Part shown: positions 24,241 to 60,327 of the stretch, piece by piece | Layout: each line of letters opens with the position of its first letter | Numbering within the stretch: position 1 is the stretch's first letter | Assembly (NCBI RefSeq): GCF_003790525.1 | Contig: NZ_CP033635.1 | Strand: one strand, 5' to 3' | Source of the DNA: Escherichia coli | GTDB taxonomy: Bacteria > Pseudomonadota > Gammaproteobacteria > Enterobacterales > Enterobacteriaceae | DNA length: 64,000 nucleotides | Notes under the pieces: generated by a model | Database searches by the model: none | Told to the model about the DNA's origin: nothing | What the model saw: only the letters and a program-made list of their open reading frames with translations | Made by a program: the position numbers and the translations under genes

Positions 24241-24252
24241 GGAAACAGGATT

Positions 24253-25035: not shown

Positions 25036-25052
25036 TCCCTGAGGTATTTATC

Positions 25053-25940
25053 ATGAATATTGGATTTATCGGCACCGGCATAATGGGTAAGCCGATGGCT
25101 TATAATTTACAACAAGCCGGACATACTCTTTATTTTTCAGCGCATTTTGAACCTGCACCGCAAGAGCTTATTGGTGAACGTGGCATTGTTTGCTCTACAC
25201 CGCGTGAAGTCGCGCAGGAGTGTGAGGTCATCATCACCATGCTCCCTGATACCCCACATGTTGAGGATGTTCTTTTTCATCCCAACTATGGCGTAATACA
25301 CGGTTTAAGCCACGGGAAAATTGTCATTGATATGAGTTCAATTTCCCCGGTTGCCACCAAAGCATTTGCACAACGTATTATCGCGGGAGGCGCGGAATAT
25401 ATCGATGCGCCCGTCTCTGGCGGTGAAGTTGGCGCGAAAGCCGGGACGCTTTCCATTATGGTTGGCGGATGTGAAGAGGTTTATTTACAGATCAAACCGA
25501 TTCTGGAATTGATGGGTAAAAATATCACTCTGGTCGGGAACGTCGGTGATGGTCAAACGTGCAAAGTCGCTAACCAAATTATTGTTGCACTGAATATTGA
25601 AGCGGTGGCTGAAGCCCTGCTCTTTGCCAGTAAATCAGGTGCCGATCCCGCCCGCGTACGTGAAGCTCTGATGGGGGGTTTTGCTTCCTCTCGTGTATTG
25701 GAAGTTCATGGCGAACGGATGATCAAAGGGACATTCGCCCCTGGTTTTCGAATTAGCCTGCATCAAAAAGATCTGAATCTGGCACTGGAGAATGCTCGCC
25801 TGTTGAATACCCCGCTTCCTAACACGGCTATGACGCAACAATTATTTAGCGCCTGCGCCGCGCTCGGTGGTAAAGAGTGGGATCATTCTGCGTTAATTCG
25901 GGCGCTTGAAACACAAGCCAATTTCACTATCCGTAAATAA
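25053..25940 (+). CDS. Tartronate semialdehyde reductase-like (beta-hydroxyacid dehydrogenase family)
   Basis: 295 aa; N-terminal NAD-binding GFIGTGIMG; third gene of the gcl-like operon. Confidence 0.8.
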   Translation: MNIGFIGTGIMGKPMAYNLQQAGHTLYFSAHFEPAPQELIGERGIVCSTPREVAQECEVIITMLPDTPHVEDVLFHPNYGVIHGLSHGKIVIDMSSISPVATKAFAQRIIAGGAEYIDAPVSGGEVGAKAGTLSIMVGGCEEVYLQIKPILELMGKNITLVGNVGDGQTCKVANQIIVALNIEAVAEALLFASKSGADPARVREALMGGFASSRVLEVHGERMIKGTFAPGFRISLHQKDLNLALENARLLNTPLPNTAMTQQLFSACAALGGKEWDHSALIRALETQANFTIRK

Positions 25941-26014
25941 TGAATTAAGGGAACCACCGGTTCCCTTCGTTCACTCGTTGCCCTGCCCCATTCCCCTATT
26001 TTGAGAGACCTGCT

Positions 26015-27157
26015 ATGAAGATAGTTATCTCCCCCGACTCCTTTAAAGAATGCCTTCCCGCATGGAAAGTCGCCGAAGCGCTGGCAACCGGCTGGCGCAA
26101 GGTCCTGCCTGGCAGCCAACTGGTGTGTTTGCCCGTGGCTGACGGCGGCGAAGGCACGCTCGAAACACTCATTCATGCGACTGACGGTACGTTTTACACT
26201 AAAAAAGTCACCGGACCGCTTGGCGAATCAATACATGCGCAATACGGTATTTTAGGCAACCAAACCACCGCAGTGATAGAACTGGCACAAGCTTCAGGGC
26301 TGGAACTGGTTTCTCCTGTCCAGCGTTCTCCCCTTTATACGACGTCGTTTGGCACTGGCGAACTTATTCTCGCCGCCCTGGAACACAATATTGATACCGT
26401 TATTCTATGCCTGGGTGGCAGTGCTACAAATGATGGCGGTATTGGGTTGATGTCGGCACTTGGCGCATCGTTTACAGACGCCGAAGGGCTATCAGTCTCT
26501 GTTAATGGGATGGGGCTGGCGGCAATTCACCACATTGACTTACAGCACCTCGATCCACGATTGAAAAATGTGAAATTTATTGCAGCCTGTGATGTCACCA
26601 ACCCACTAACCGGCGATAACGGCGCGACTCGGGTTTTTGCTCAACAAAAAGGGGCCAGTGCTGACAACCTTGAGCAACTGGAACAGGGAATGAAAAACTA
26701 TGCCCGTTGCATCTACCGTTGTTGTGGTAAAGAAGTCGATACGATACCCGGTTCTGGGGCGGCTGGCGGCGTTGGCGCGGCCTTGATGGCTTTTCTCGAT
26801 GCTCGCTTACAACCGGGTATTTCGCTCGTGCTGGAAGCGATTCAATATACCCAACATTTAAAATATGCAGCATTGGCGATTGTCGGTGAAGGTAAATTAG
26901 ACCGTCAAAGCCTGAATGGCAAAGCACCTGTGGGGGCGGCCAAAATCGCCCAGATGATGGGCGTTCCGGTTATCGCAATTGCCGGGTATATCGATGATCA
27001 ACTTGATTTGAATGAGTTACGCCAGTGTGGAATCGAAGCCTGTTTTTCCGTCGTCAATGGTCCTTGTGATTTACCCACCGCGCTGAGTCAGGGGGAAAAT
27101 AATTTAATTCGTCTCGGAGAAAATTTGGCAGGGTATTTTCATGCAGTCCTGAGTTAA
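26015..27157 (+). CDS. Glycerate kinase (GlxK/GarK family)
   Basis: 380 aa; starts MKIVISPDSFKE, typical of the glycerate kinase family. Confidence 0.8.
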   Translation: MKIVISPDSFKECLPAWKVAEALATGWRKVLPGSQLVCLPVADGGEGTLETLIHATDGTFYTKKVTGPLGESIHAQYGILGNQTTAVIELAQASGLELVSPVQRSPLYTTSFGTGELILAALEHNIDTVILCLGGSATNDGGIGLMSALGASFTDAEGLSVSVNGMGLAAIHHIDLQHLDPRLKNVKFIAACDVTNPLTGDNGATRVFAQQKGASADNLEQLEQGMKNYARCIYRCCGKEVDTIPGSGAAGGVGAALMAFLDARLQPGISLVLEAIQYTQHLKYAALAIVGEGKLDRQSLNGKAPVGAAKIAQMMGVPVIAIAGYIDDQLDLNELRQCGIEACFSVVNGPCDLPTALSQGENNLIRLGENLAGYFHAVLS

Positions 27158-27212
27158 TTCCCGTTCGGTAAAATGCCCGATAATGCAAATTACCGGGCAT
27201 TCCTGAACATCA

Positions 27213-28754
27213 TTATTCATCTCTCGCGGTTTTCTCTTCAGCCGCAAGCTGTGTCAAAAAACTCTTCAATAAAATAAACACTACGCCGCAAAGCGGTAGT
27301 CCGGCCAGGATAGAGACCGTTTGTAGCGGTTGCAGACTTTGCGCATCAAGAAGATAGAGTGTGATTGCGACGATTCCGGTCATAATCAACCAAAATGCCA
27401 CGTTCCAGAATGCCGGTTCACTCTCACTATCTGCCCGTTTTTGCGTCGCAAAACCGAGGGCATAACCCACAGTACAGTGTCCGGTAATATATGAAATTAA
27501 TGCTATAGCCCCAAAAGCAACCAAAAACACCTGACTTGCGGGTAGCTGCTCCAGTAAACGAGAAACGACAACGCCTCGCCCTTGTTCGTTAAGTATGGGA
27601 ACAAAATCGATGACATGAGTTGTCTGCAACGATAAGCCGAAATTAGCCAGTACCATGTAAAAAACCATGCATCCCAATGAACCTGCCAGAGTTCCACATA
27701 CAATCAATTGCCGGATCGTCCTTCCTTTTGAAATACGGGCGATAAATAAACCGAATGGGATGGCATACACGACCCACCATGAAAAATAAAATACGGTCCA
27801 CATCTGTGGAAATCCGCTACGACCAATAGCATCGGTACTTAAACTCATCGCTACAAAATTTTGCAGCATCAGGCCGAAACCATCAATTGATTGGTTAAGT
27901 ATAAAAGCTGTCGGTCCACAAATCAGTATTGCCAGTAGCATAAAAATATCGGCACGAATATTCCAGTTACTGGCCCATGCCACACCTTTTTTAAGTCCAA
28001 AAAAGAGAATTAATAATGGCACTAGCGTCCAGATAAAAATAACCATGACATTGATAAACTGCCCGGCAGGATCCAGATGGAACACATGGCAAAATACGGC
28101 AGAAATCATCGGCGTTCCCAGCGCCAGAGACGTTACCGCGCCGCCGAGCAAACCAAACATGTAGAAAAAATTCACACAATGCCCGCAAAAACCATCAGCA
28201 CGTGCCCCCAGACACCCACGGCATAAATCACTGACCTTTAATGAGTTCGTTTTCTTAACATGCATAAACCAACCAATGGGAACGGCACAAATCAGATACC
28301 ATGCCCATGCGGACGGCCCCCAATGGAACATGCCATAAGCAGAGGCCCAACGAGCAGCCTGAGCGCTTCCTGCTGTCGCGCCAAAAGGCGGTTGCTGAAT
28401 GATCCAAATCCACTCTACAGAGGCCAGATATAACAAGCTGCCCCCCGTTCCAGAAGTAAAAATAAGTCCAAGCCAGGTTAACAAGCTGAAGTCAGGCTTT
28501 TCTCCCGACTGACCTAACAAGATATCGCCATAACGTGAGAAGGCCAGCCACAGACAACAAAGTACAACCAGAAAAGTCATGACCAGAAAAATCCCGCCCA
28601 TTTCCCAGGTTAAAAAATGATGTATTTTATTTATATACCGGCTGGTATCTTGTGGATATATCGTCAAACACAGAATGATTACCGCAATAAATAATATTGC
28701 TGGGATAAACACATTCAGTTCAATCAAAGAAAAGCGTTTTTTTAAATATTGCAT
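27213..28754 (-). CDS. BCCT-family transporter (betaine/carnitine/choline type)
   Basis: 513 aa from ATG 28754 (AGGAG upstream); contains the BCCT signature-like stretch WTVFYFSWWVVYAIPFGLFIARISKGRTIRQ. Confidence 0.7.
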   Translation of the reverse strand: MQYLKKRFSLIELNVFIPAILFIAVIILCLTIYPQDTSRYINKIHHFLTWEMGGIFLVMTFLVVLCCLWLAFSRYGDILLGQSGEKPDFSLLTWLGLIFTSGTGGSLLYLASVEWIWIIQQPPFGATAGSAQAARWASAYGMFHWGPSAWAWYLICAVPIGWFMHVKKTNSLKVSDLCRGCLGARADGFCGHCVNFFYMFGLLGGAVTSLALGTPMISAVFCHVFHLDPAGQFINVMVIFIWTLVPLLILFFGLKKGVAWASNWNIRADIFMLLAILICGPTAFILNQSIDGFGLMLQNFVAMSLSTDAIGRSGFPQMWTVFYFSWWVVYAIPFGLFIARISKGRTIRQLIVCGTLAGSLGCMVFYMVLANFGLSLQTTHVIDFVPILNEQGRGVVVSRLLEQLPASQVFLVAFGAIALISYITGHCTVGYALGFATQKRADSESEPAFWNVAFWLIMTGIVAITLYLLDAQSLQPLQTVSILAGLPLCGVVFILLKSFLTQLAAEEKTARDE

Positions 28755-28777
28755 TTCAGTCTCCTGAATGTTTTCAT

Positions 28778-29002
28778 TCAATGAGGACGAATATTTCGCC
28801 GTTCCTTTTTCATGTGTTGCAATTGTCGGGAAAGGCGTAAAGAAAAAAAGGCGCAAATAAGTGAAAGTACCGCAATACAATACAGAGCTAAACCACACTG
28901 ATGCTGTTGCAGCATGAACAGGAATATCCCCAAAAAGAGGCCGCAGAGAACTGTGGTTATCCAGTAATTGGCACTTAAGTGCTCCAGGTCATCATCCCTC
29001 AT
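28778..29002 (-). CDS. Small two-span membrane protein upstream of the BCCT transporter
   Basis: 74 aa from ATG 29002, with AGGAG 7 nt upstream; two hydrophobic segments; 23 nt upstream of the BCCT start on the same strand. Confidence 0.35.
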   Translation of the reverse strand: MRDDDLEHLSANYWITTVLCGLFLGIFLFMLQQHQCGLALYCIAVLSLICAFFSLRLSRQLQHMKKERRNIRPH

Positions 29003-29054
29003 GGTCTTTCTCCTGCAAGGCGCAGAGAGGCTTTCAGCTCTCTGCGCCTTGTTG

Positions 29055-30419
29055 TTATGCCAGACGTACGCCCTGCTGTTGCAGCGTGTTTTGCAAATCA
29101 GGAATAGCAACCTGACGCACGGTGCAATGTTGCTGTAGCGAAACCACGGCGGCAGTGCCTGCGGCCTCACCGGTAACGGCACAACACATCATGTTGCGCA
29201 TAGAAGTATGTGCAACTACGCCTGCGGAAATACAGCGACCGGCGACCAAAAGGTTCTCCACTTTTTGTGGCACCAGACAGCCATAGGGGATCTGAAAGAA
29301 ACGCCCGGTCGTTGGCAAAATGAGATAACCGGAACCATCAATAAATTCCGGGAAAATCCCTACACTGTCCGAACAACGCCCCTGATTAAGGACGTAATCA
29401 TCAGCAATACGTATTTCCCCCTCAATAAGCCGTGATTCGCGTGTACCCAGCGTGGCGCCAAAATTGCGTAACCGTACATTTTCAAAGCCCGGAACATAAT
29501 GGCGTAGAGCGTCAATTGCCCATAATGCTTGCTGCCTTCCGGCGATTTCTGCTTTGGTTAAATCGAAGACATCGGTACAGTCAAAACCAAAGGCGTACAC
29601 CATATTCATCTGAAACGCTTCGCCGCTTTCAGAAAAGGTTGACCAGGTTCCGGCAATCGCCTGGGCGTCGCCTGGAATCACACCATCCTGCTGCGCCCGG
29701 GTAAAAATATCCTCCATATAAGGGCTAAACATCTGGTCTTCTTTGCCCGTGGTTTGAATCGTCCAGTTTTTTCCCCAATCCGCGTAGGTCGGCTTAAGTT
29801 CTTCCGCAACAAAACGGTTAAAGCGCGCCACATCGACACCTGCGCAACTGAACATCACGGTGACGCCCATCAGTTGGTCCTTTCCCCGTTTCGTCCAGGG
29901 CGCGCCTGCACGAGCAGCAATATCAGCATCCCCCGTGCAATCGACGATTCTTTTCGCCAGAATTGCCCCTCGTCCTGATTTGTTCTCGACAATAACACCG
30001 CATAACGTATCCCCTTCCTTGATCACATCCACAACCCAGGAGTGATATAACGGCTCAACGCCAGCTTCCGTTATCATCTGATCGGCAACAACTTTAAATC
30101 CTTCAGTATCTATAACTTCGCTAATTGACTGAGGTTCTGGTCGCGTGAAGCCCAATGCTCGCGCGCGGCCTTCATATTCACGACAAATCCCTTCACAATC
30201 TTCCGTCCCCGGATGGCGATACCAGGCAAAACTTTCCACACCAACCTGCGTCAATACGCCGCCTAGTGAGCCGTAACGCTCAACAATCATGGTTCTGGCA
30301 CCTAGCCGCCCCGCCGCTATCGCCGCCGTTAATCCTGCCGGACCGCCCCCGATAACCAGAACGTCCGTTTGTGCAATGACTGGCGTTTGCCGTGCACTTT
30401 CATTAATCATGTCCACCAT
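29055..30419 (-). CDS. FAD-dependent oxidoreductase (paralog 2)
   Basis: Start chosen at ATG 30419 (GGGGGAA upstream); the track ORF starts at TTG 30449, overlapping the upstream MFS gene; VLVIGGGPAGLTAAIAAGRLGARTMIVERYGSLGG fold; paralog of 18516-19886. Confidence 0.7.
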   Translation of the reverse strand: MVDMINESARQTPVIAQTDVLVIGGGPAGLTAAIAAGRLGARTMIVERYGSLGGVLTQVGVESFAWYRHPGTEDCEGICREYEGRARALGFTRPEPQSISEVIDTEGFKVVADQMITEAGVEPLYHSWVVDVIKEGDTLCGVIVENKSGRGAILAKRIVDCTGDADIAARAGAPWTKRGKDQLMGVTVMFSCAGVDVARFNRFVAEELKPTYADWGKNWTIQTTGKEDQMFSPYMEDIFTRAQQDGVIPGDAQAIAGTWSTFSESGEAFQMNMVYAFGFDCTDVFDLTKAEIAGRQQALWAIDALRHYVPGFENVRLRNFGATLGTRESRLIEGEIRIADDYVLNQGRCSDSVGIFPEFIDGSGYLILPTTGRFFQIPYGCLVPQKVENLLVAGRCISAGVVAHTSMRNMMCCAVTGEAAGTAAVVSLQQHCTVRQVAIPDLQNTLQQQGVRLA

Positions 30420-30436
30420 TGGTTCCCCCATCAGAT

Positions 30437-31705
30437 TCAGGATGCGCAATCCGCATTGTTTTCAGTGATTTCATTGACTTGATTTTTACTTTTACGATTC
30501 ACACGCTGGAGGACCAGTGCGGCGATAAGGCCGATGAATGCGCAAACCAACATGAACAGGAAAACATCCTGATAACCGGCAATACCCGGTTTGCGGTCGA
30601 CCATATTGCCCACCATCGTGTAGCAGTAGATTTCCGGGAAATAGGTCAGTAAAGAGATCAGACCCGCAGCAGTCCCTGTGACTTTTGCCGGGATCCGAAT
30701 CTCATCAATAATTGAGAAGAACACGGCATTCGCAGAGTAAATAAACACGCCCAACGCAACCATATTCGCCAGCGCAATAGTGACGTAGCGCGACTCACCG
30801 GGCAGGAAGAAATAAACGGTAGTAAAGACAATCATGCCGATAAAGGCGTAAATCATAAAACGCGTGCGTGACGCACAGCGGTCGGCCAGTTGTCCGCCAA
30901 TTAATCCCCCCATCGCAAATAACACATAGGCGCGAAGAATACTGGCAACTGCCACTTCCGATTCGCCCATATGCAGGATCTGCGTGAGATACGGCGTGAC
31001 CATGCCAAAGCCGATATAAATTGACCACATACAAAAGGTCACAACACCTGCCAGCCAAACCGTCGGCATTTTCAGCACGAATGCCATATCTGCCAGACGG
31101 AAATTCGCTTTATCTTCGCTGTGCGTTTCATCCTGACAAACAAACCAGGCTAAAACACCGGCCAGAATAGTCACTACGGAATAAAAAATAATTGTCGCCC
31201 GTAAACCATCAACACCTTCGCCAAATTTGGCAAATACCGGCACGGAAAGAAATCCCAGTACAATGGAGGTTAATCCCTTACCCAGAAACCAGTAACCGTA
31301 TAAGCGACCTTGTTCTTCGCTGGTTCCCAGGGTACGAATAATTCGCACACACACGGCCCAAAACGTAAATACGGTTGTAACAGCCCAAAGTGCATGTAAC
31401 AAACAGATCATAGTATACGAGGGGAAGGTCGCATAATAAAAACCACTTATCCCGGTGGAAATTAATGAAAAGGTCATTAATTTACGTGCAGAAAATCTAT
31501 CGGCAGCCCAACCGCCAGGTAGATATAATAAAAAGTTCACCAGACCATAGGCTGTCATTAGAAAACCAAGTTCAGCATTAGTCGCTCCTGTAGCCTGCTG
31601 CATCGCGTCGTAATAGGTTTCCCGTAAATAAGGCAATTTATATATTGCACTTCCGGCAATACCACATAACGCCAGCGTGATCCAACGTTTCCAGTTACTG
31701 GTCAT
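30437..31705 (-). CDS. MFS transporter
   Basis: 422 aa, 12-span hydrophobic profile; immediately upstream of FAD oxidoreductase paralog 2 on the same strand. Confidence 0.75.
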   Translation of the reverse strand: MTSNWKRWITLALCGIAGSAIYKLPYLRETYYDAMQQATGATNAELGFLMTAYGLVNFLLYLPGGWAADRFSARKLMTFSLISTGISGFYYATFPSYTMICLLHALWAVTTVFTFWAVCVRIIRTLGTSEEQGRLYGYWFLGKGLTSIVLGFLSVPVFAKFGEGVDGLRATIIFYSVVTILAGVLAWFVCQDETHSEDKANFRLADMAFVLKMPTVWLAGVVTFCMWSIYIGFGMVTPYLTQILHMGESEVAVASILRAYVLFAMGGLIGGQLADRCASRTRFMIYAFIGMIVFTTVYFFLPGESRYVTIALANMVALGVFIYSANAVFFSIIDEIRIPAKVTGTAAGLISLLTYFPEIYCYTMVGNMVDRKPGIAGYQDVFLFMLVCAFIGLIAALVLQRVNRKSKNQVNEITENNADCAS

Positions 31706-31772
31706 ATTTATTCCCGAATGAAGTATTTAAAATGACACCAACGGCCTGCTTTGCACAGGCCGTATTATTTTT

Positions 31773-32855
31773 TTAAAGTCCCAAATGATGTGCAGTTAAA
31801 ATTGCGCAAAGAACGTCCTGCGCTGTTACTACGAATGGCATATTATGGATAGTTTCCCCTTCAGCAGTCGCTGCTTCAGCCACTGCCCGTAATTTATCTT
31901 TATTAATTTCCTTCACGCCTAACATATGAAGATTTGTCGGCAGACCAACGCTATGGCAGAAATTGAGTACGGTTTCAATTTCCTCCTGTGGTGCGTTTTC
32001 CAGTACGAGCTGTACCAGGACGCCAAATGCCACTTTTTCACCGTGGTAGCAATGATGGCATTCCTCCAGTTGCGTCATGCCGTTATGAATGGCATGAGCT
32101 GCCGCCAGGCCGCTACTTTCAAATCCAATGCCGCTAAGATAGGTATTAGCTTCGATAATATTCTCTACCGCTTTGGTGCTAACACCTTGTTCAACCGCGA
32201 CTTTTGCCTTATAGCCATCTTCCAGTAGCGTGGTATAACAGAGTCGGGCAATAGCCAGTGCCGCCAGTGTCGACGCCCCACCTGCCATTGTGGCTTTTCC
32301 TGACGCCTGATTGGCTCTCGCCTCAAACCAGGTTGACAATGCATCTCCCATACCGGCCACCAGCAGACGCACTGGCGCGGCTGAAATGACGCCAGTATCC
32401 ATAATCACCATATCCGGGTTTTTCGGGAAAAACAGATATTCGCTAAACTGGCCTTCCGGGGTGTAAATTACTGCCAGAGAACTGGTTGGCGCATCTGTGG
32501 AAGCAATTGTCGGCACCACCACTACCGGAATTTTTTGGTAATACGCTACGGCTTTTGCCGTATCCAACGTTTTACCGCCGCCAATACCAATAACGACATT
32601 ATATTTACGCTGATTAAATTTCTCACGAATTCGAGAAATTTCATTTTGCGAGCATTCACCGCAAAAAACATCAAGATCCGCAATAATGTTTTCTCTTGCA
32701 AAGCTCTGGCTTACTCTGTCACCAACCAGACCGGTCACAAATTCATCTGCAATAATTAATGGTTCTGTTCCCAAACTCGCCGCATATGTAGCAATATTAT
32801 CCAGAGAACCATTTCCCTGGATATATTTAGCCGGACTTATAATAATCTTATCCAT
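31773..32855 (-). CDS. Glycerol dehydrogenase-like (iron-containing alcohol dehydrogenase family, GldA paralog)
   Basis: 360 aa; GIGGGKTLDTAKA and GFESSGLAAAHAIHNG motifs as in GldA. Confidence 0.8.
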   Translation of the reverse strand: MDKIIISPAKYIQGNGSLDNIATYAASLGTEPLIIADEFVTGLVGDRVSQSFARENIIADLDVFCGECSQNEISRIREKFNQRKYNVVIGIGGGKTLDTAKAVAYYQKIPVVVVPTIASTDAPTSSLAVIYTPEGQFSEYLFFPKNPDMVIMDTGVISAAPVRLLVAGMGDALSTWFEARANQASGKATMAGGASTLAALAIARLCYTTLLEDGYKAKVAVEQGVSTKAVENIIEANTYLSGIGFESSGLAAAHAIHNGMTQLEECHHCYHGEKVAFGVLVQLVLENAPQEEIETVLNFCHSVGLPTNLHMLGVKEINKDKLRAVAEAATAEGETIHNMPFVVTAQDVLCAILTAHHLGL

Positions 32856-33174
32856 ATCATTCCTCGCGTAACTTGTTTTGCTTCACTGTTAACCTACTCG
32901 TTGCATCCAGTGGCGGCAAACATTTCATTCGCGAAAAATTATGTTTTATGATCGCGCTGTAAAAAACATCATCTGCAGATGATAATAAAAAACACTTTTC
33001 ATGCCTTAATCACAATATATCAATATCCATACTGGTCCCTTTTCATTTTGAAACAACACCATGAATTAACTGTTTCATTATGAATCTTATTATCGTGCGA
33101 TTTGTTTTATTGCGGTTGGAGAATTAATCTCGCAAACATATTTAGCGCGATTTACGTAATTTATCAGAACAGGA

Positions 33175-34245
33175 ATGACTATGAAGAAATTAATTAACCA
33201 GATTGATTCTGTTGTCACAGAACAAATGGAAGGACTCATCGCCACCTGGCCACACCTGCAGGCAAATTACGCGCCCCGATATGTGTGGTGCAAACAAACC
33301 GATAATGCAGTGGCGCTGATTTCAGGCGGCGGCTCAGGCCATGAACCACTGCATGCAGGTTTTGTCGGTATGGGAATGTTAACCGGTGCATGTCCTGGTG
33401 AAATCTTCACATCGCCCACGCCAGATCAAATGATCGAATGTGCCAAAGCGGTTGATAATGGTTCTGGCGTTCTGTTTTTCATCAAAAATTACACAGGCGA
33501 TATTCTGAATTTCGAAACGGCAGTCGAGATGTTACACGAAGAAGGCATCGCCGTTGGGACCGTCATTATTGATGATGATGTAGCGGTAAAAGATAGCCTG
33601 TATACAGCCGGACGTCGCGGTGTTGCGGGTACAGTTTTTGTTGAAAAGATTGTCGGTGCGGCTGCACTTCAGGGATATAACCTGGGGCAGTGCGAGCAAC
33701 TTGGCAAAGATGTTAACAATGCCACCCGTTCTTTTGGCATCGCACTGTCAGCCTGTACGGTTCCCGCCGCGGGAAAACCCTCATTTGAACTGGCTGATAA
33801 TGAAATCGAATTTGGTGTCGGGATCCACGGTGAACCCGGCATTGAACGCCGCACTTTGCAAGATCTGAACACTTTAATCGACAGCGTGATAGCGCAATTA
33901 CTGGATAATACCCCCTGGCGACGCACATTACGCCATTGGGATCGCCATGCGGGGGGATGGATTGACGCATCATCAATGAATGAGTCATTCGATCAAAATG
34001 CCGAATATATTGTGTTAATTAACGGACTTGGCAGCACGCCTGAATCAGAGTTATATGGTGTGGCCAGGGTATTTATGTGCGCCGCACAGCGCCAGGGAAT
34101 TAAAATTAGCCGCCAGTTGGTCGGTAATTATTGTACATCATTAGATATGGCCGGATTTTCCATCAGCCTGCTGAAATGTACCCCAGAGTTTTTGCAACTT
34201 TGGGATGCCCCGGTCAATACGCCAGCGCTTCGTTGGGGATGTTAA
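33175..34245 (+). CDS. Dihydroxyacetone kinase subunit DhaK (paralog)
   Basis: 356 aa; extensive match to recalled E. coli DhaK (LISGGGSGHEP, GEIFTSPTPD, IKNYTGDILNFETA, VIDDDVAVKDSLYTAGRRGVA). Confidence 0.85.
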   Translation: MTMKKLINQIDSVVTEQMEGLIATWPHLQANYAPRYVWCKQTDNAVALISGGGSGHEPLHAGFVGMGMLTGACPGEIFTSPTPDQMIECAKAVDNGSGVLFFIKNYTGDILNFETAVEMLHEEGIAVGTVIIDDDVAVKDSLYTAGRRGVAGTVFVEKIVGAAALQGYNLGQCEQLGKDVNNATRSFGIALSACTVPAAGKPSFELADNEIEFGVGIHGEPGIERRTLQDLNTLIDSVIAQLLDNTPWRRTLRHWDRHAGGWIDASSMNESFDQNAEYIVLINGLGSTPESELYGVARVFMCAAQRQGIKISRQLVGNYCTSLDMAGFSISLLKCTPEFLQLWDAPVNTPALRWGC

Positions 34246-34257
34246 TAAGGACATTAT

Positions 34258-34890
34258 ATGAAAATTCAAAACAAACATGTTATTGCCTGGCTGGAGAGTT
34301 GTGCTGCACATCTCACTGAACAACAAGATTTTCTAACCGCACTTGACAGAGATATTGGTGATGCCGACCACGGCCTCAATATGAATCGTGGTTTCAGTGC
34401 AGTGAAAGCGACGTTGCCCGACATTGAACGTCAGCATATTGGCAATATTCTTAAAAATACTGGCATGAAACTACTTTCCAGCGTTGGCGGTGCCAGTGGT
34501 CCTCTTTACGGCACATTATTTATTCGCGCTTCTGCGGCAGTGGGAGCCAGAACAGAATTAACTCTGGAAGAGTGGCTGGCGTGTCTGGAAGAAGGGATTG
34601 CAGGCGTTATCGCACGAGGAAAAGCAGAACAAGGGGATAAAACACTGTGTGATGTCTGGGTTCCAGTTCTCCACGAAGCCAAAAAGAACCTGCAAGCCGG
34701 AATGTCGCCTTCCCTTCTGCTGAATACGATGGTGCAAGATGCGGCAACAGCAGTCGATAACACCATCAATATGCAGGCGAAAAAAGGACGTGCCAGTTAT
34801 CTCGGCGCTCGCAGTGTGGGCCATCAGGATCCAGGCGCGACCTCCTCCTGGCTGATGATTAAGGCTATGCAGGAAGGATTCGCGGGATAA
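34258..34890 (+). CDS. Dihydroxyacetone kinase ADP-binding subunit DhaL (paralog)
   Basis: 210 aa; LDREIGDADHGLNMNRGF and SSVGGASGPLYGT motifs as in DhaL. Confidence 0.85.
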   Translation: MKIQNKHVIAWLESCAAHLTEQQDFLTALDRDIGDADHGLNMNRGFSAVKATLPDIERQHIGNILKNTGMKLLSSVGGASGPLYGTLFIRASAAVGARTELTLEEWLACLEEGIAGVIARGKAEQGDKTLCDVWVPVLHEAKKNLQAGMSPSLLLNTMVQDAATAVDNTINMQAKKGRASYLGARSVGHQDPGATSSWLMIKAMQEGFAG

Positions 34891-34893
34891 ATT

Positions 34894-37275
34894 ATGGTTG
34901 CCATTGTTATTGTTTCTCATAGTCTACGTCTCGCCCAGGGGGTTGAGGAATTAGCACTACAGATGTCTGGAGGGGACGTTCCTCTGGCCATTGCTGCAGG
35001 TATTGATGATCCGCAAAATCCGATTGGCACTGATGCTATTGCCATTATGTCTGCGATTGAATCGGTCTGGTCACCGGATGGCGTTCTGGTACTCATGGAT
35101 ATGGGCAGTGCGCTGCTTAGTACCGAGATGGCGCTGGAGCTGCTTTCTGAAGAGCAAAGAAGTGCAATTTATCTGCTCGCCGCCCCTGTAGTGGAAGGTG
35201 CCATGTCAGCGGTAACGTCTGCCGCAGCGGGGCTTTCGGTGACGGAGATTATCGCTGAAGTGGATCTTGCGCTGTGTGCTAAACAGCAGCAACTCACGCC
35301 ATCCTCAACTGCAGGCGAGGTTATTCCAGCAATATCACCAATCAATCATTCCGGTGAATGGCAAACTTTTTGCTGGACGATACGTAATCCCCACGGCATT
35401 CATGCTCGTCCGGCAGCCAGCATCCTGAAAGTATCCGCACAATATTCGGCAAACATTATCGTCATCAAAGGCGATAAACGCGCCAGCACCCGCAGTCTCA
35501 ACGAACTGGCAATGCTGGGCGTCCGCTGTGGCGATGAAATCATCTTCCAGGCCGAAGGCACCGATGCCAGTGACGCTCTCAAGGCAATTGAAACGTTGGC
35601 GAAAAATCATTTTGGTGAAGCTCACCTGCTCGCTTCTTCAGAGATTCCGCTAACGGAAACGCCGGTGGTCAGCGCCCCTGTCGATGGCGCAATATCAGGC
35701 TTGTCAGTACAAAATGGTATCGCTATTGGTCCTGTTAAATGGTTTACCTGCGAACGACCAGAAATTACGCAGCGCACCGTCGATTCTCCGCAAGAAGAGC
35801 TGTCGCGAATCGAGTCTGCTATCGACATTGTTGTTTGTGAACTTGCCGATAAAGCGGCAGGCCCTGAAGGCGATATTTTTGCCGCCCATAAAATGATGCT
35901 TGAAGATCCAAAGATTAACCGGCAATTACAGCAACGTCTGGCAAAGGGCAAACAGGCGGAATTCGCATGGTTAGAAGTCATGCAGGCATTAGCAGAGCAA
36001 TATTGTCAGGCGGAAACACTGTATTTACGTGAACGCGAGGCAGATATCCGTGACCTTACACGTCAGGTACTGAACCAGCTTTGCGGGGGAAGTGAACAAC
36101 ACTTTATTACTACCGCGCCCTGCATTTTGTTAGCCAACGATCTGTTGCCATCACAGATAACCAGCCTGAATAAAGCACACATTCTTGGCATTTGTCTTCA
36201 TAATGGCGGAACAACTTCACATACAGCGATCCTTGCCAGAGCAATGGGTATTCCTGCCATTGTGAAGGCAGCTATTACCCCGCAAAACGTCCGCGATAAC
36301 GACACGGTCATTCTTGATGGTGAAACAGGCCGTTTGTGGCTACAGCCGGATGAGGTCACCCGCCTGGATTTACTGCAACGCGCCGAAGCATGGCGGCAAC
36401 AAAGGGATCGTCAGTTAGCTGATGCCATGCAGCCCGCTGTCACGCAAGGTGGGCGAAAAATCAGCGTGCTGGCGAATATTGGTGACCTGCAAGATATTGA
36501 GGCTGCGCTATCTCACGGGGCTGAGGGCGTGGGTTTACTGCGCACAGAGTTTTTATTCCATGAGTCTGCAACATTACCCGATGAAGAAGAGCAGTTTCGC
36601 GTGTATTGTTCTGTTGCTCAGGCTTTTGGCGATAAACCAGTCACCATCCGCACTCTGGATATTGGCGGTGACAAGCCATTACCTTCGTACCCTTTACCCG
36701 CAGAGGACAACCCGTTCCTGGGACTTCGCGGTATCCGGTTGTGCCTGGCGCATCCGCAAATATTTATTCCGCAATTACGCGCACTTCTCCGGGCCGGGAA
36801 AGAATACCCAACGCTGCAAATTATGCTGCCGATGGTTTCAACGCTCGAGGAGGTCAACGCCGTCAAAACGCTGATACAAACGCAGGCAAAACTGCTGGGA
36901 CTTACTGCAGAAAATCTTCCGGCGCTGGGAATTATGATTGAGGTTCCTGCTGCAGTCATGATTGCAGAAAAATTAGCCAGTGAAGTCGATTTCTTTTCCA
37001 TCGGCACCAACGATCTGACGCAATATATTATGGCGGCAGACAGAGGAAATAGCACCGTCGCGGAACTGGTCGATTATCGTAATGACGCGGTGATTAACGC
37101 TATTGCTATGGTGTGTCAGGCCGGACGTAATAATGAAATTCCGGTCAGTATGTGCGGCGAAATGGCTGGAGATACCCAGCAAACAGCACGACTGCTCACC
37201 ATGGGGATTGATAAGCTCAGTGCCAGTCCGTCCCGGCTTCCGGCCTTGAAAGCAGCAATCAGAACCTCCCACTAA
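34894..37275 (+). CDS. DhaM-like multiphosphoryl transfer protein: EIIA(Man-like) + HPr-like + complete Enzyme I
   Basis: 793 aa; N-terminus MVAIVIVSHS ... AAGIDDPQNPIGTDA matches DhaM; HPr-like segment with GIHARPAA; EI phosphohistidine region GGTTSHTAILARAMGIPAIV and C-terminal PEP-utilising region ending FFSIGTNDLTQY. Confidence 0.85.
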   Translation: MVAIVIVSHSLRLAQGVEELALQMSGGDVPLAIAAGIDDPQNPIGTDAIAIMSAIESVWSPDGVLVLMDMGSALLSTEMALELLSEEQRSAIYLLAAPVVEGAMSAVTSAAAGLSVTEIIAEVDLALCAKQQQLTPSSTAGEVIPAISPINHSGEWQTFCWTIRNPHGIHARPAASILKVSAQYSANIIVIKGDKRASTRSLNELAMLGVRCGDEIIFQAEGTDASDALKAIETLAKNHFGEAHLLASSEIPLTETPVVSAPVDGAISGLSVQNGIAIGPVKWFTCERPEITQRTVDSPQEELSRIESAIDIVVCELADKAAGPEGDIFAAHKMMLEDPKINRQLQQRLAKGKQAEFAWLEVMQALAEQYCQAETLYLREREADIRDLTRQVLNQLCGGSEQHFITTAPCILLANDLLPSQITSLNKAHILGICLHNGGTTSHTAILARAMGIPAIVKAAITPQNVRDNDTVILDGETGRLWLQPDEVTRLDLLQRAEAWRQQRDRQLADAMQPAVTQGGRKISVLANIGDLQDIEAALSHGAEGVGLLRTEFLFHESATLPDEEEQFRVYCSVAQAFGDKPVTIRTLDIGGDKPLPSYPLPAEDNPFLGLRGIRLCLAHPQIFIPQLRALLRAGKEYPTLQIMLPMVSTLEEVNAVKTLIQTQAKLLGLTAENLPALGIMIEVPAAVMIAEKLASEVDFFSIGTNDLTQYIMAADRGNSTVAELVDYRNDAVINAIAMVCQAGRNNEIPVSMCGEMAGDTQQTARLLTMGIDKLSASPSRLPALKAAIRTSH

Positions 37276-37285
37276 TTGTGACCTA

Positions 37286-37312
37286 ACGCGATACGTCTTG
37301 CGCGTATCGCGT
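37286..37312. terminator. Bidirectional stem-loop between the dhaM-like gene and iraD
   Basis: ACGCGATACG ... CGTATCGCGT perfect 10 bp inverted repeat followed by TT. Confidence 0.5.
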
Positions 37313-37322
37313 TTCCCGTCAT

Positions 37323-37715
37323 TTACTGCGGCATCGTGCGATGCCAACTCCCCTTCTGCCAGACCAGATCAAACGTTAGCGGTTCATCGTCGTGGTACAG
37401 CATTATCTCAAGGCTGATCGCCAGCGTGTGGCAGTACGCTTCTTTCAAATTGACCTGCAACGCCGCAATCCGTGGCTCATGAAATAACAGTGCAGAACGC
37501 AGCTGACGGCAATACCAGCTCTGAAGATGTTTGTCGCTCTGGTTATGCAGTTGCCACTCGGGCATGCCTGAAACAAGTAATGACGGTAATGCCGAATGAG
37601 GAGAATTAAAAAGTGTGAGGAGATCGCTGCATACCGATTTACGCAGCGATGACGTTTTATTGCCTGAAATTTCAGGTAAAACAGCCTGAAGTGATTGGCG
37701 CATCATTTTGCGCAC
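37323..37715 (-). CDS. iraD: Anti-adaptor protein IraD (YjiD)
   Basis: 130 aa; sequence matches recalled IraD; followed by a long AT-rich upstream region shared with divergent yjiC. Confidence 0.75.
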
Positions 37716-38377
37716 TCCTGACGTTTAGCAACATATGCGGCTTGCCCTGAACACCGGGCACCACTGTATTGATGCTCATTTTCCATAGCCATTCCCTTTT
37801 GTTCATTACATCCATGTCAGTCTGAGACAGGCCTGAATCCTGTCAGCAAAGTATAAAACCTTACTTGCCTATGAATATCTACTGACTTTTCAGGAAAAAA
37901 GTCATGATTTGATAAAAATCATCAAACTCAAAAAAAAACTGCTAGTATATTCTGAATATTTCGAATAGTTATGTAGATGAAAATACTTGTCACCGCTGCT
38001 ACTTAATTCCGGTGGGAAATTATTTATTTCCGCATAATCAGCCATGTACTATTTGAAACAATTAGTTTGTAAATAATATAAATTGATAACATATCAAATA
38101 CATCAAAAATACCATTCATAGGCATTATTAATATAGACATAAATATAGCAACATCAAATTCCAATTAGTAATAAGATATGCTTTTTAATTGCATGAAAAT
38201 AATTTCAAATGAGCGTTTTTTGATACTTTAGAGTGTTTCCTACCCTTTAATATCACCGTGTAGAGTTGATATCACTACAACAGAAACATGCATGTCATTT
38301 TTTTACTTCTTTTTTACTACAGAAAAATTTATCTATTTTTCTAAACATCAGTGAAATACTCATAAAAGGTAACTATT

Positions 38378-39208
38378 ATGTCTATGCCATTAAGCAATGC
38401 CGCTAATAACCAATTCAATACAAATAATCACTTCCTTCATCACCCAAGAGTCGACAATAAGTTAACACGTGAATATGAATATGCACGCATGGATACGGAA
38501 AATATCTATATTATGCCTCTTGTTCGTGGCAATAACCATAATTACGATGGAAAAAGTGTTGTCGAAATTAGAAAACTTAATATTAGCAAACAGTCCTGGC
38601 CATTTAATTATGTGACAGAAACATGCAGAGAATTCAATGGTATTACAACAACAGGACGTATGCTCTATCGAAACTTGAAAATCACCTCAGCTTTAGACGA
38701 AATATATGGTGGTATATGTAAAAAGGCGCATGCTGCCACAGAGTTAGCGGAAGGATTACAACTAAATTTATTTATGAAGAGCCCCTCCGATCCTGTAGAG
38801 GACTATACTGTGCATGAAATAACATTAGGCCCTGGCTGCAATGTTCCTGGTTATGCCGGAACCACGATAGGATATATTTCAACCCTTCCAGCTTCTCAGG
38901 CAAAAAGATGGACCAATGAACAGCCAAGGATTGATATCTATATTGATCAGATAATGACGGTAACAGGGGTAGCAAATTCTTCCGGATTCGCCGTTGCCGC
39001 ATTACTTAATGCTAATATTGAGATGGGAAATGACCCAATAATTGGTATAGAAGCCTATCCCGGTACCGCGGAGATCCATGCAAAAATGGGATATAAAATT
39101 ATCCCCGGTGATGAAGATGCGCCACTCAAACGCATGACTCTGCAACCGTCATCTCTTCCAGAACTGTTTGAATTAAAAAATGGTGAATGGAATTATATTG
39201 GTAAATGA
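38378..39208 (+). CDS. yjiC: Uncharacterised protein YjiC
   Basis: 276 aa; size and position match K-12 yjiC. Confidence 0.75.
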   Translation: MSMPLSNAANNQFNTNNHFLHHPRVDNKLTREYEYARMDTENIYIMPLVRGNNHNYDGKSVVEIRKLNISKQSWPFNYVTETCREFNGITTTGRMLYRNLKITSALDEIYGGICKKAHAATELAEGLQLNLFMKSPSDPVEDYTVHEITLGPGCNVPGYAGTTIGYISTLPASQAKRWTNEQPRIDIYIDQIMTVTGVANSSGFAVAALLNANIEMGNDPIIGIEAYPGTAEIHAKMGYKIIPGDEDAPLKRMTLQPSSLPELFELKNGEWNYIGK

Positions 39209-57209: not shown

Positions 57210-58190
57210 ATGAACGCAATAATATCGCCCGATTATTACTATGTTCTTACCGTTGCTGGTCAGTCTAATGCCATGGCGTATGGCGAAGGACTGCCATTAC
57301 CGGACAGGGAAGATGCGCCTCATTCCAGAATTAAACAATTAGCGAGATTTGCGCATACGCATCCCGGAGGCCCGTCATGTCACTTTAACGACATTATTCC
57401 TCTGACTCACTGCCCACACGATGTTCAGGATATGCAGGGTTATCACCATCCTCTGGCAACGAATCATCAAACACAGTACGGCACCGTTGGCCAGGCACTG
57501 CATATTGCACGAAAATTACTGCCCTTTATTCCTGATAACGCAGGGGTTCTCATCGTTCCGTGTTGCCGTGGCGGATCGGCTTTTACCGCGGGCAGCGAAG
57601 GGACATATTCAGAACGGCACGGAGCCAGCCATGATGCTTGTCGTTGGGGATCGGATACTCCGCTATACCGGGATTTAGTCAGCAGAACGCGAGCCGCACT
57701 GGCAAAAAATCCGCAGAACAAATTCCTCGGCGTATGCTGGATGCAAGGCGAATTTGACTTAACGACCAGTGACTACGCGTCACACCCTCAACACTTTAAT
57801 CATATGGTTGAAGCCTTTCGTAGGGATCTAAAACAATACCATTCTCAGCTTAATAATATTACTGACGCGCCGTGGTTTTGCGGCGATACCACCTGGTACT
57901 GGAAAGAAAAATTCCCTCATGCGTATGAAGCTATTTATGGCAATTATCAAAATAATGTTTTAGCCAATATTATTTTCGTCGACTTCCAGCAACAAGGTGA
58001 AAGAGGACTGACGAACGCGCCTGTTGAAGACCCGGACGATTTAAGCACGGGATATTACGGTTCAGCGTACCGGTCACCGGAGAGCTGGACGACGGCACTG
58101 CGAAGCAGTCATTTCAGCGCGGCAGCCCGTCGGGGGATTATTTCTGACAAGTTTGTAGAAGCAATTTTGCAGTTTTGGCGCGAAAGGTGA
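57210..58190 (+). CDS. nanS: 9-O-acetyl-N-acetylneuraminate esterase NanS
   Basis: 326 aa from ATG 57210; third gene of nanCMS. Confidence 0.85.
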   Translation: MNAIISPDYYYVLTVAGQSNAMAYGEGLPLPDREDAPHSRIKQLARFAHTHPGGPSCHFNDIIPLTHCPHDVQDMQGYHHPLATNHQTQYGTVGQALHIARKLLPFIPDNAGVLIVPCCRGGSAFTAGSEGTYSERHGASHDACRWGSDTPLYRDLVSRTRAALAKNPQNKFLGVCWMQGEFDLTTSDYASHPQHFNHMVEAFRRDLKQYHSQLNNITDAPWFCGDTTWYWKEKFPHAYEAIYGNYQNNVLANIIFVDFQQQGERGLTNAPVEDPDDLSTGYYGSAYRSPESWTTALRSSHFSAAARRGIISDKFVEAILQFWRER

Positions 58191-58243
58191 GCGTTCATTA
58201 ATTTGATTTATTTGCATCCATCAACGCTTTTAACTGCTCCGGC

Positions 58244-58990
58244 GTGCGGCACTATAATGGTTTTCACAACAAGGAGCCATTTTCTTATACCACTTTCAGA
58301 GACCATCCGCTTATGCCACCGCCCTCTACGCAACTGTTTGCAGAGCACCTTCCCACCGAGTGGATACAGCACCTCCTGACGCTTTCTGCTCATGCGACCA
58401 TTTGTCGTCTTAACCTGAGCGCGGATGGCGAAGCGGGGATTAGCCTGCTGGCCCGCAGCGCTGTCACCCAGGAGCGCCAGCGCGTGGGGGCCCCCTGGTG
58501 GAATGGCTCTTCCGCCAGACCGCACAGACATGGGGCGCGGAACGTTACCTGAAGGATGACTGGCACGGCCTGCAACTTTTTGCCATTGATGGCGCACAGT
58601 TCAGGACACCTATGAACCTGAGTTGCGCGAATATTATGGCTCTGCCAACACATCCACTGAGCGGCAGAGCGCCTACCCGGTCATGCGTCTGGTGGCGTTA
58701 ATGAATCTGGGAATCACATTCTGCTGAATGCCATGACCTCGGCCTACCGGCGGAGCGATACAGCGTGAGGCAACTAAAGCGGCGTCAGAAATCAGCTTTA
58801 AGTTCGCATTCCAGTTTATCGTGACAGAAATGATAGTGCAGGGAAATACGGCGTCACCAGGAACCATCCCGAAACGGCTGGAGCATCTGCGGGGTGCTCT
58901 GGAAGCGGTGTTCCCACGACTATCAAGGCCGAGGGCTGTTAAGGTATCAAAAACCCGTTATCCGGTGAAACACAGTGCCGCCCCGCTTAA
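58244..58990 (+). pseudogene. IS4-family transposase remnant (frameshifted, internally deleted)
   Basis: Translations in two frames align to IS4 transposase segments as I recall them (e.g. QTAQTW ... LFAIDGAQFRTP and the C-terminal KTRYPVKHSAAP); no intact ORF; no terminal inverted repeats identified. Confidence 0.5.
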
Positions 58991-59163
58991 GTGACGGCAT
59001 TGTGTTTCTGACTGGCCTTAACTTTCCCTGAATCTCTGACGATCCTCACCATTGATATTTTCTTCATTCCTCACCAGAGAAATAAAAAATCACTATACTC
59101 ATCAAAATATGAGATTACATTTATTCAGGCGATCACCTTACTATTTTATACGGAAAATAAATC

Positions 59164-59814
59164 ATGAATATCCGTCAATCATTACATGACCGAATCTATG
59201 CAGAATACCCTCAACAGGCTAAAGATATATTACTGTATTTCCCCACTTATGAAATTATGCCATCGACCATAAAAATGGTTATGATTAATGAGGTGGTAGC
59301 TATAACACCGCAAGAAGATTTTTATACACCAGAGTCTGGTTATTTTACGACTGTCGCCCGACAGTTAGCGCTGGCTGGATTATCGGCAAGTAGTGGCGAA
59401 GTCTTACTCAACCATGGTATCTACCTGACCTCCGCACTGAAACTACCTAAAACACAGATCACAGCCACACCCGCGGAGATCATTCTCTGGTCACCTATTG
59501 TAGAATGGGAGCTCGAACTCTTTGCCAATATAAAAGTTATTTTCGTTGGCGGCGATATCGCGCGAAAATGCCTTAACATCATCGCGAAAAAGCAAACACG
59601 TAAACATGCCATCCCTTCAACTCCGACGTACAAACTGATGAATAGCGAATTAGTCTGGAAAGGAATAAGCATACTTCCTGGATATATTCTTACCGGAAAA
59701 AACCTGCTCATTGAAAAGTCAAAAATCGAAATGAATGTCGAACAATTAAGAAAAGGAATTGCGATTTATCGCAATAGTAACAGTAACCATACGAATAATT
59801 CAGTTCATGAATAA
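59164..59814 (+). CDS. Hypothetical protein (216 aa), AT-rich; possibly uracil-DNA-glycosylase-superfamily-like
   Basis: ATG 59164; no close family recognised; weak resemblance to UDG-fold motifs (IFVGGDIARK ... KHAIPSTP); convergent with the helicase gene. Confidence 0.45.
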   Translation: MNIRQSLHDRIYAEYPQQAKDILLYFPTYEIMPSTIKMVMINEVVAITPQEDFYTPESGYFTTVARQLALAGLSASSGEVLLNHGIYLTSALKLPKTQITATPAEIILWSPIVEWELELFANIKVIFVGGDIARKCLNIIAKKQTRKHAIPSTPTYKLMNSELVWKGISILPGYILTGKNLLIEKSKIEMNVEQLRKGIAIYRNSNSNHTNNSVHE

Positions 59815-60327
59815 GAGATGAATCATTAATAACAAGAAATCACTGACAAACCACCTGTAAAAGGTCAATCATTTTAGTTCAATTTCCTTTGTCATGATTA
59901 TATTTTTATCGTCCTGACGATACTATTAACAATTACAATATTTATACCCTCCCCAGAACAAACAGAAAAGAACTCATACATTCGTTTATAATTCTGGTAA
60001 TCCTGGCATCATACGTTTAAAATTTAAGGTGTTTGTTTTATAATCATGATTCCAAAGACTATTGGTCACCAGAAAATGCCAGCCTTTTCGTGCCAGCTAT
60101 ATTTGTCCAGTGTGTTACCCCATCCAAAAATCATCCACATCCTGATGTTACGTTAGATATAGAGAAAACAGGTTGTACTGTGCAATATGCTAACCGCATA
60201 AGCGAATATAATTTCTAAGCTGATATTGTCTGGCTGTTGGGAGCTAAACAATATAAATATCGCCAGTTGCCAGAACGGTTATATAGACCAGGAGCGTTTC
60301 GGCTCCTGGTCTGTTTCGGACATATTA

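Follow-up and report, generated by a model that had tools for sequence, protein, structure and literature searches.

Uracil-DNA glycosylases (UDGs) form a well-known superfamily whose families 1-6 have in common an alpha/beta/alpha fold with a four-stranded parallel sheet. Motif 1 of the superfamily reads GE[AG]PG in family 4 (UDGa), GLAPA in family 5 (UDGb) and GEQPG in UdgX. It is known that the motif-2 histidine H155 of Tth UDGa contributes about 10^4-fold to catalysis, and that the base-reading asparagine of family 4 contributes more than 40-fold to uracil excision (PMC5387724). The antiviral proteins Brig1, Brig2 and Brig3 resemble family 4 UDG most (PMC11078745; bioRxiv 10.1101/2025.10.29.685425; 10.64898/2026.02.25.707755). 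Here we consider a gene of this superfamily in a window of Escherichia coli DNA, the window being the entire analysed stretch of 64,000 nucleotides from contig NZ_CP033635.1. The gene is an open reading frame (ORF) of 216 amino acids (aa) that lies next to a DISARM-like defence system.

The ORF represents a variant branch of the UDG superfamily. Its product is WP_001026378.1, the same coding sequence being found in strain SMS-3-5 and in other strains; the whole window is identical to SMS-3-5 (NC_010498.1). Older RefSeq releases label the product 'hypothetical protein', and the current one already names it 'uracil-DNA glycosylase family protein'. Our preferred reading, which we hold with about even confidence, is that the gene encodes a stand-alone, horizontally acquired UDG-branch DNA glycosylase for damaged or modified bases. 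It would have been taken from AT-rich gut anaerobes and stranded between an insertion sequence (IS) remnant and the DISARM-like system.

Fold and motifs of the encoded protein

The gene and the segments of its product that are discussed below are as follows.

59164..59814, plus strand: UDG-superfamily gene, ATG start, 216 aa, WP_001026378.1
59284..59301, plus strand: motif-1-like segment I41-N-E-V-V-A46, right after strand beta1 (aa 38-42), from DSSP and the alignment
59320..59325, plus strand: F53-Y54, candidate base-stacking aromatic pair, F/Y kept in the family
59416..59451, plus strand: strand beta2 and motif-3 region G85-I-Y-L-T-S90-A-L-K93-L-P-K96, aligning with Tth UDGb G106-P117
59536..59568, plus strand: strand beta3 and helix start V125-I-F-V-G-G130-D131-I-A-R-K135, inside the PF03167 match
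59677..59724, plus strand: loop at the motif-2 position, P172-G-Y-I-L-T-G-K-N180-L-L-I-E-K-S-K187, without His, after the last strand (168-173)

An AlphaFold2 model of the protein, computed from an alignment of 27 family members, has high confidence (pLDDT 89.5, pTM 0.87) and the alpha/beta/alpha fold with the four-stranded parallel sheet described above. A Foldseek search with this model returned UDG structures with probability 1.00 and a best E-value of 3.6e-6 to 2d3y (Tth UDGb). The same structure is found by sequence: the family profile matches 2d3y among PDB chains with E 8.6e-4, with only the central third aligned, and a phmmer search with the single ORF sequence finds only 2d3y (E 0.18). 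The Pfam model PF03167 matches aa 81-152 of the E. coli protein with E 0.003 and 18.1 bits, under the gathering cutoff of 24.3 bits. All 27 aligned relatives match PF03167 at E <= 0.01 (best 8e-8), the E. coli copy scoring lowest, and the family lies at the periphery of the PF03167 model. The predicted structure places the protein in the UDG superfamily at fold level. A first-pass annotation of the window, made from the sequence alone, had suspected a weak resemblance to this superfamily, which the fold and profile searches bear out; its statement that no family could be assigned does not stand, given the PF03167 matches of the ORF and of its relatives.

The branch is small and separate from the large canonical UDG families, since a search of the family profile against 1.84 billion cluster representatives yielded only 443 clusters at E <= 1e-3. 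A fold search of BFVD gave no hits other than generic UDGs of phages and the UDG-like domains present in DNA polymerases. Scans of the ORF with NCBIfam, PADLOC and PHROGs were empty; the PADLOC release of 2023 predates the description of Brig and holds no Brig models. The ORF is a real gene and not a chance frame, because an index of 5.8 billion proteins contains 111 homologues at E <= 1e-3, the nearest outside E. coli reaching E ~1e-40. The description of the gene as an orphan holds only in the narrow sense that the copy stands isolated among Proteobacteria, on a long branch and at no more than 48% identity to any relative; 111 homologues exist.

Residue conservation was derived from the 27 aligned relatives, 93 close sequences and 57 representatives of the wider family. 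In the motif-1-like segment, I41, N42, E43, V44 and V45 are invariant in the 27 close relatives. Within the wider family, position 43 is E or D in 47 of the 57 representatives and position 46 is P in 43 of them, with Ala46 in E. coli. By positional mapping, motif 1 of the wider family reads [NSAG]-E-[AV]-[VAP]-P, similar to the GE[AG]PG of family 4, and corresponds to N-E-V-V-A in E. coli. E43 is the conserved polar residue right after strand beta1 by which motif A of the UDG superfamily is recognised, and we infer a catalytic role for it. The pair F53-Y54 may be analogous to F54 of Tth UDGa and Y121 of Brig1.

Downstream of motif 1, strand beta2 has the conserved pattern G85-x-Y-x-T-x-A-x-K93-x-x-K96. 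Position 90 is, again by positional mapping, where Tth UDGa has its uracil-reading Asn80. Of the close relatives 97% have N here, the wider family has T, N or S, and the E. coli protein has Ser. Position 99 is the counterpart of the water-positioning asparagine (N89 in Tth UDGa, N120 in Tth UDGb); N120 aligns to Ile99 of the E. coli protein, and the close relatives show no conserved Asn at this position. E116 is conserved in the family, as are G130, D131, A133 and K135. The segment IFVGGDIARK, which had been singled out earlier as a possible landmark of the superfamily, proved well chosen: it comprises strand beta3 and the following helix, contains the conserved G130 and D131 and lies inside the PF03167 match (81-152). 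P151, R159 and R169 are likewise conserved in the family, with M159 and S169 in the E. coli copy.

The motif-2 position is [ILMV]-P-S/G-Y in the family and L171-P-G-Y in E. coli, and its histidine is absent. P172, Y174, T177, G178, N180 and the sequence LLIEK are invariant in the close relatives; S173 is replaced by Gly in E. coli. A second segment proposed earlier, HAIPSTP, is not the HPS form of motif 2. It sits in the loop before the last beta-hairpin, its His148 occurs only in the E. coli copy (the relatives have Asn or Arg), and the motif-2 position is occupied by P172-G-Y-I-L-T-G-K-N. An alignment of the family with E. coli Mug by hhalign was also tried for motif mapping and discarded, being not significant and pairing only the beta2 region. 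Among 86 columns that are at least 90% conserved, none is Cys, and the E. coli protein has a single Cys; there is therefore no 4Fe-4S cluster.

If the protein is a glycosylase of the kind that we favour, it would be a monofunctional enzyme that flips a damaged or modified base into a pocket formed by motif 1 (E43), F53/Y54 and position 90. The N-glycosidic bond would be hydrolysed and an abasic site left behind. Plain uracil is unlikely to be the main substrate, because the branch has neither the motif-2 His nor the motif-3 Asn, which drive the excision of uracil in families 4 and 5, and the E. coli copy also has no base-reading Asn. More likely substrates are lesions or modified bases, whose leaving group would be better than that of plain uracil.

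Relatives and their gene company

A scan of 100,044 species genomes yielded 263 relatives. The best 80 of these 263 loci, for which taxonomy was compiled, are all from gut or anaerobic Firmicutes or Bacteroidales, with no further proteobacterium among them. The Firmicutes include Lachnospiraceae, Hungatella, Anaerotruncus, Clostridium and the species Enterococcus raffinosus, E. avium and E. malodoratus; the Bacteroidales include Parabacteroides, Muribaculaceae, Prevotella and Bacteroides. In one lineage of relatives the gene lies next to Hef and FlpD, a setting that appears to be archaeal. The ORF protein shares no more than 48% identity with any sequence from outside E. coli and Shigella. The genes of the relatives have a median GC content of 40.0%, compared with 40.1% for the ORF. 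The simplest reading is that E. coli acquired the gene horizontally from a gut anaerobe with AT-rich DNA, since the best relatives are all Firmicutes or Bacteroidales, reach at most 48% identity and match the ORF in GC content. Plasmid copies of the family were found only on Enterococcus megaplasmids.

Neighbouring genes were clustered over 79 loci of relatives. The most frequent partner is a regulator of HTH_11-WYL-WCX architecture, a winged helix-turn-helix (wHTH) protein encoded directly upstream on the same strand in 23 of the 79 loci. Directly downstream, an MFS transporter is found in 13 of the 79 loci and a DUF6194 gene in 10. The loci with DUF6194 are Bacteroidales arrays of small co-directional genes, among them Zn-ribbon-YCII, Zn-ribbon-PNPOx, a hexapeptide acetyltransferase and a class A beta-lactamase. 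This layout, in which long runs of small genes are unrelated to one another, resembles cassette arrays. The Bacteroidales arrays (loci L022, L023, L038, L048, L070, L074 and L077) also hold Sel1-DUF4303 genes, and an IS110 element or an integrase is sometimes adjacent. Other neighbours on Pfam-annotated contigs are regulators of the MerR, TetR, AraC, HxlR and PadR families, MatE and MFS pumps, acetyltransferases and DJ-1 proteins; one locus contains a pyrimidine-nucleoside phosphorylase.

WYL repressors of the wHTH-WYL-WCX architecture are known to bind single-stranded DNA and to respond to DNA damage (PMC11662680), and WYL regulators also control or flank phage-defence systems (PMC9122601). 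A locus from a member of the Lachnospiraceae (L105) contains, 5 kb from a cassette of WYL regulator, UDG-like gene and MFS transporter, a further pair of WYL regulator and AlkZ-like glycosylase; the second regulator is split, and the glycosylase (PF06224) follows it at 15396-16972. Cassettes of a glycosylase under WYL control may thus be a recurring feature of gut Firmicutes. Natively, the family seems to belong to an inducible reaction to damaged or foreign DNA and not to act as a partner of helicases and methyltransferases. In its native hosts the gene would usually serve repair under the control of a WYL regulator, presumably in response to DNA damage, and an exporter gene of the MFS type often follows it.

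The E. coli ORF has no WYL gene upstream and no MFS partner; the IS remnant lies upstream instead. A blastx search of the E. coli flanks detected no remnant of WYL, MFS or other partner genes of the relatives. On our preferred reading, the E. coli copy would have lost its regulator and partner and become dispensable.

The gene company also bears on a different view, namely that the protein is a stand-alone antiviral glycosylase after the manner of Brig, which excises the non-canonical base of hypermodified phage DNA and leaves abasic sites at which replication is blocked. WYL regulators of the CapW/BrxR type stand ahead of the relatives, as would suit such a role, and the altered base-reading residues of the E. 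coli copy (Ser90, His148) and its long branch are what an arms race would give. Most relatives, however, lie among MerR, TetR and AraC regulators, efflux pumps, acetyltransferases and housekeeping genes and not in defence islands, and a tblastn search of 50,697 phage genomes found no homologue of the ORF; nor are counter-defences known. We regard this view as rather doubtful; further evidence on it comes from the surroundings of the E. coli gene.

The E. coli locus, its loss alleles and the adjacent system

The features that surround the ORF, and the segment that is missing in one of its alleles, are as follows.

58313..58994, plus strand: frameshifted IS4-like transposase remnant truncating nanS, context only (RefSeq annotation; Nterm_IS4 match)
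58995..59163, no strand: AT-rich upstream gap, 169 bp, 34.9% GC, still present in deletion alleles
59171..59831, no strand: segment missing in the O157:H7-type allele, 661 bp (blastn: 58001-59170 and 59818-60500 abut, locus L011)
59815..60327, no strand: AT-rich gap from ORF to helicase without annotated gene, 513 bp, 36.1% GC
60328..62442, minus strand: UvrD/GajB-like helicase, 704 aa, last gene of the system (Pfam UvrD-helicase 1.3e-23; PADLOC GajB 2.6e-36)
62439..64000, minus strand: C-terminal third of a DruE-like helicase, running past the end of the window, context only

The helicase gene is present in 532 of 5426 complete E. coli genomes, including 22 plasmid places. The whole ORF is found in 92 of the 5426 genomes, always at this one locus beside the system. 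About 440 genomes have the system but not the ORF; hence the ORF is lost in about 83% of the genomes with the locus.

Two loss alleles were resolved. In the O157:H7-type allele the deletion is clean and lies at an A/T-rich microhomology. Its junction reads ATGAAT followed by AACAAG, so that the ATG and the codon after it survive, with a stub of 11 codons, ATGAATAACAAGAAATCACTGACAAACCACCTGTAA (L011 9000-9040). The IS remnant, the AT-rich sequence on either side and all of the system are still present. An interpretation of this allele as an empty insertion site was rejected, and it is a deletion, because the first two codons of the ORF and the AT-rich sequence on both sides remain. In E. coli KCTC 2571, an IS1 element removes everything upstream of 59650 and the system is intact (L010 8248-9251). 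The system of this strain follows tRNA-Phe, an integrase and an eptA-like pseudogene and is not beside nanS and fim; the left-hand junction of the island is therefore another one in this strain. One low-quality assembly carries the ORF with a 1-nt frameshift. The gene is repeatedly lost and dispensable in E. coli.

Among four sampled E. coli alleles we count four distinct synonymous changes and one non-synonymous change, to which the cluster representative adds one non-synonymous change. This is a weak sign that intact copies are still constrained. The 89% identical sequence P0002 was set aside as a second allele for the dN/dS comparison: it is from the same locus, with the 1-nt frameshift, in the low-quality assembly.

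Several points weigh against an active glycosylase as the preferred reading has it. No activity report was found for any member of the family. The mapping of motifs is positional, based on the DSSP assignment of the model and a partial HMMER alignment to Tth UDGb. The WYL link holds in only about 29% of the loci, and because WYL regulators also control phage-defence systems, the role in native hosts may be repair or defence. The upstream gap contains no consensus sigma-70 promoter directly before the ORF. The E. coli copy is off consensus at 25 of the 86 columns that are at least 90% conserved in 92 relatives (other members depart at a median of 1 and a maximum of 17 of them), with P46A, N90S, N148H, R159M, R169S and S173G among the departures; two near-universal arginines are thereby missing. 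As the most deviant member of the family, the E. coli copy is possibly impaired or changed in its role.

The departures from consensus, the missing arginines and the missing promoter consensus would also be expected of a decaying passenger, that is, of a gene brought in on foreign AT-rich DNA that, separated from its regulator and partner, serves no function in E. coli and is disappearing. At least two independent inactivations (the 661-bp deletion and the IS1 truncation), the 1-nt frameshift in one assembly and the presence in only 92 of 5426 genomes point the same way. We nevertheless consider this explanation unlikely. The frame has stayed open through divergence to about 41-48% identity, and this takes long purifying selection somewhere, and synonymous changes exceed non-synonymous ones among the intact alleles. 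The most conserved core residues are retained (E43, F53/Y54, G85-Y-x-T...K93...K96, G130-D131 and P172-x-Y...G178-x-N180), and the AlphaFold2 model is confident.

The adjacent system consists of four genes and is similar to DISARM class 1; only its last gene and a half are inside the window. The genes encode a DrmD-like helicase of 952 aa (PADLOC 1.4e-99), a type IIG/DrmMI-like methyltransferase of 1640 aa, a DruE-like helicase of 2113 aa with an MZB/DUF1998 domain and a ZorE-like C-terminus, and the UvrD/GajB-like helicase, which occupies the place of DrmC. What had earlier been called a helicase-nuclease module is the tail of this system (60328-64000 of the window, minus strand; 22867-39102 of the SMS-3-5 locus L003).

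The first-pass annotation had proposed that the ORF product, if a UDG-like protein, is a DNA-modification-sensing accessory of its neighbour. Three observations speak for such a subunit of the DISARM-like system: all 92 complete E. coli copies stand at the one locus beside the system, the IS1-truncated remnant is still joined to the helicase side despite its different left-hand context, and a base-flipping fold could in principle read modifications. Co-occurrence, however, largely refutes the accessory role. The ORF is found in 92 E. coli genomes against 532 genomes and 22 plasmid places for the system, which dispenses with the ORF in about 440 of these genomes and in the 22 plasmid places, and the system is intact where the ORF is deleted (O157:H7) or cut by IS1 (KCTC 2571). 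When the four system proteins were compared by tblastn with the loci of 93 homologues, including flanks of up to 10 kb to either side, no locus contained a relative of any of them (0/93). The conserved partners of the relatives are entirely other ones (WYL, MFS, DUF6194). The ORF is, in addition, convergent with the system across a 513-bp gap and is therefore not co-transcribed with it. We judge a role of the protein as an accessory subunit to be very improbable.

In SMS-3-5 the defence genes continue beyond the window (L003 1-22643). They comprise Druantia type III (a DruH of the STY4851/ECs_5259 family and DruE), Zorya type II (ZorA2/B2/E), a phosphorothioate-dependent restriction endonuclease, an HNH endonuclease and a JetD-domain gene. 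Because the Druantia III, Zorya II, restriction and JetD genes lie further along, the ORF stands at the edge of a defence island. Towards the other side (57210-58994), nanS (sialate O-acetylesterase) lacks its C-terminal end, and the frameshifted IS4-like remnant, with 57% GC, comes next; the nanS/IS remnant marks the island boundary beside nanCM and the fim operon.

The composition of the locus agrees with what had been noted before: the ORF has a GC content of 40.1% (GC3 38.7%), well under the UvrD-type helicase gene (49.8%) and the IS remnant (57.2%), and it is convergent with the helicase gene and placed between it and the remnant. Its GC content is 7 points under that of the window (47.0%). 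Since both gaps are AT-rich as well (34.9% and 36.1%), the low-GC block is wider than the ORF on both sides. An Rfam scan of the sequence around the ORF matched no RNA family. The 513-bp gap is about 95% conserved in strains without the ORF. It contains a good sigma-70-like site, TTTAAA-17-TATAAT (60016-60044, plus strand), a 61-codon ORF with TTG start (60033-60218) and, just beyond the stop codon of the helicase gene, a perfect GC-rich hairpin of 10 bp (about 60283-60312).

Both the low GC content and the position at the edge of an island of DISARM-like, Druantia III, Zorya II, phosphorothioate-dependent restriction and JetD genes would suit an antiviral glycosylase, for Brig1, Brig2 and Brig3 are single-gene UDG-fold defences often found in defence islands, in AT-rich, recently acquired DNA. 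Such a protein might cover phages that escape the neighbouring methylation and helicase systems, which we likewise think doubtful; the loss of the ORF in about 83% of the E. coli genomes carrying the locus speaks against it. A combined scenario is conceivable in which the ORF is the lone proteobacterial offshoot of an undescribed UDG family: in gut anaerobes this family would form a WYL-controlled cassette of glycosylase and exporter against genotoxic adducts or foreign modified DNA, and E. coli would have co-opted it as a Brig-like effector that removes a hypermodified phage base and complements the DISARM-like and Druantia systems. We consider this scenario quite unlikely.

Significance and comparison with known systems

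As it stands, the E. coli ORF is an often-lost, already-annotated accessory gene and a modest finding. When the adjacent DISARM-like system is dissected, it should not be counted with that system. If the family is active, it would constitute a new UDG lineage that works without the His and Asn of families 4 and 5. That gut bacteria repeatedly pair the gene with a DNA-damage-sensing WYL regulator and an efflux pump suggests an unexplored response to genotoxins or foreign modified DNA. On the precedent of Brig1-3, the ORF would also be a cheap single-gene candidate against phages with modified bases.

Closest by structure are family 4 (UDGa), family 5 (UDGb) and UdgX (PDB 1l9g, 1ui0, 2d3y and 6ail), at 13-20% identity. 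Unlike these, the branch of the ORF has neither the four 4Fe-4S cysteines nor the 'HP[SA]' His of motif 2 nor the motif-3 Asn, and unlike family 4 the E. coli copy also has no uracil-reading Asn (Ser90). The branch differs from MUG/TDG (family 2) in that the catalytic Asn of GINPG is not conserved, position 42 being N, S, A or G in the wider family.

A second comparison concerns genetic context. The ORF shares with Brig1, Brig2 and Brig3, as judged from their descriptions, the organisation as a single gene, the UDG fold and the non-canonical pocket residues. The E. coli copy also resembles them in lying in AT-rich acquired DNA at the edge of a defence island, a setting that the loci of its relatives do not have. 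Homologues of Brig1 are mainly actinobacterial and those of Brig2 mainly proteobacterial, whereas the family of the ORF belongs to Firmicutes and Bacteroidales. WYL-controlled damage and defence cassettes (CapW/BrxR-type; WYL with AlkZ-like glycosylase) are similar to the loci of the relatives, which follow a WYL regulator in 23 of 79 cases. The E. coli copy is unlike these cassettes, having neither a WYL gene nor an MFS partner and an IS remnant upstream.

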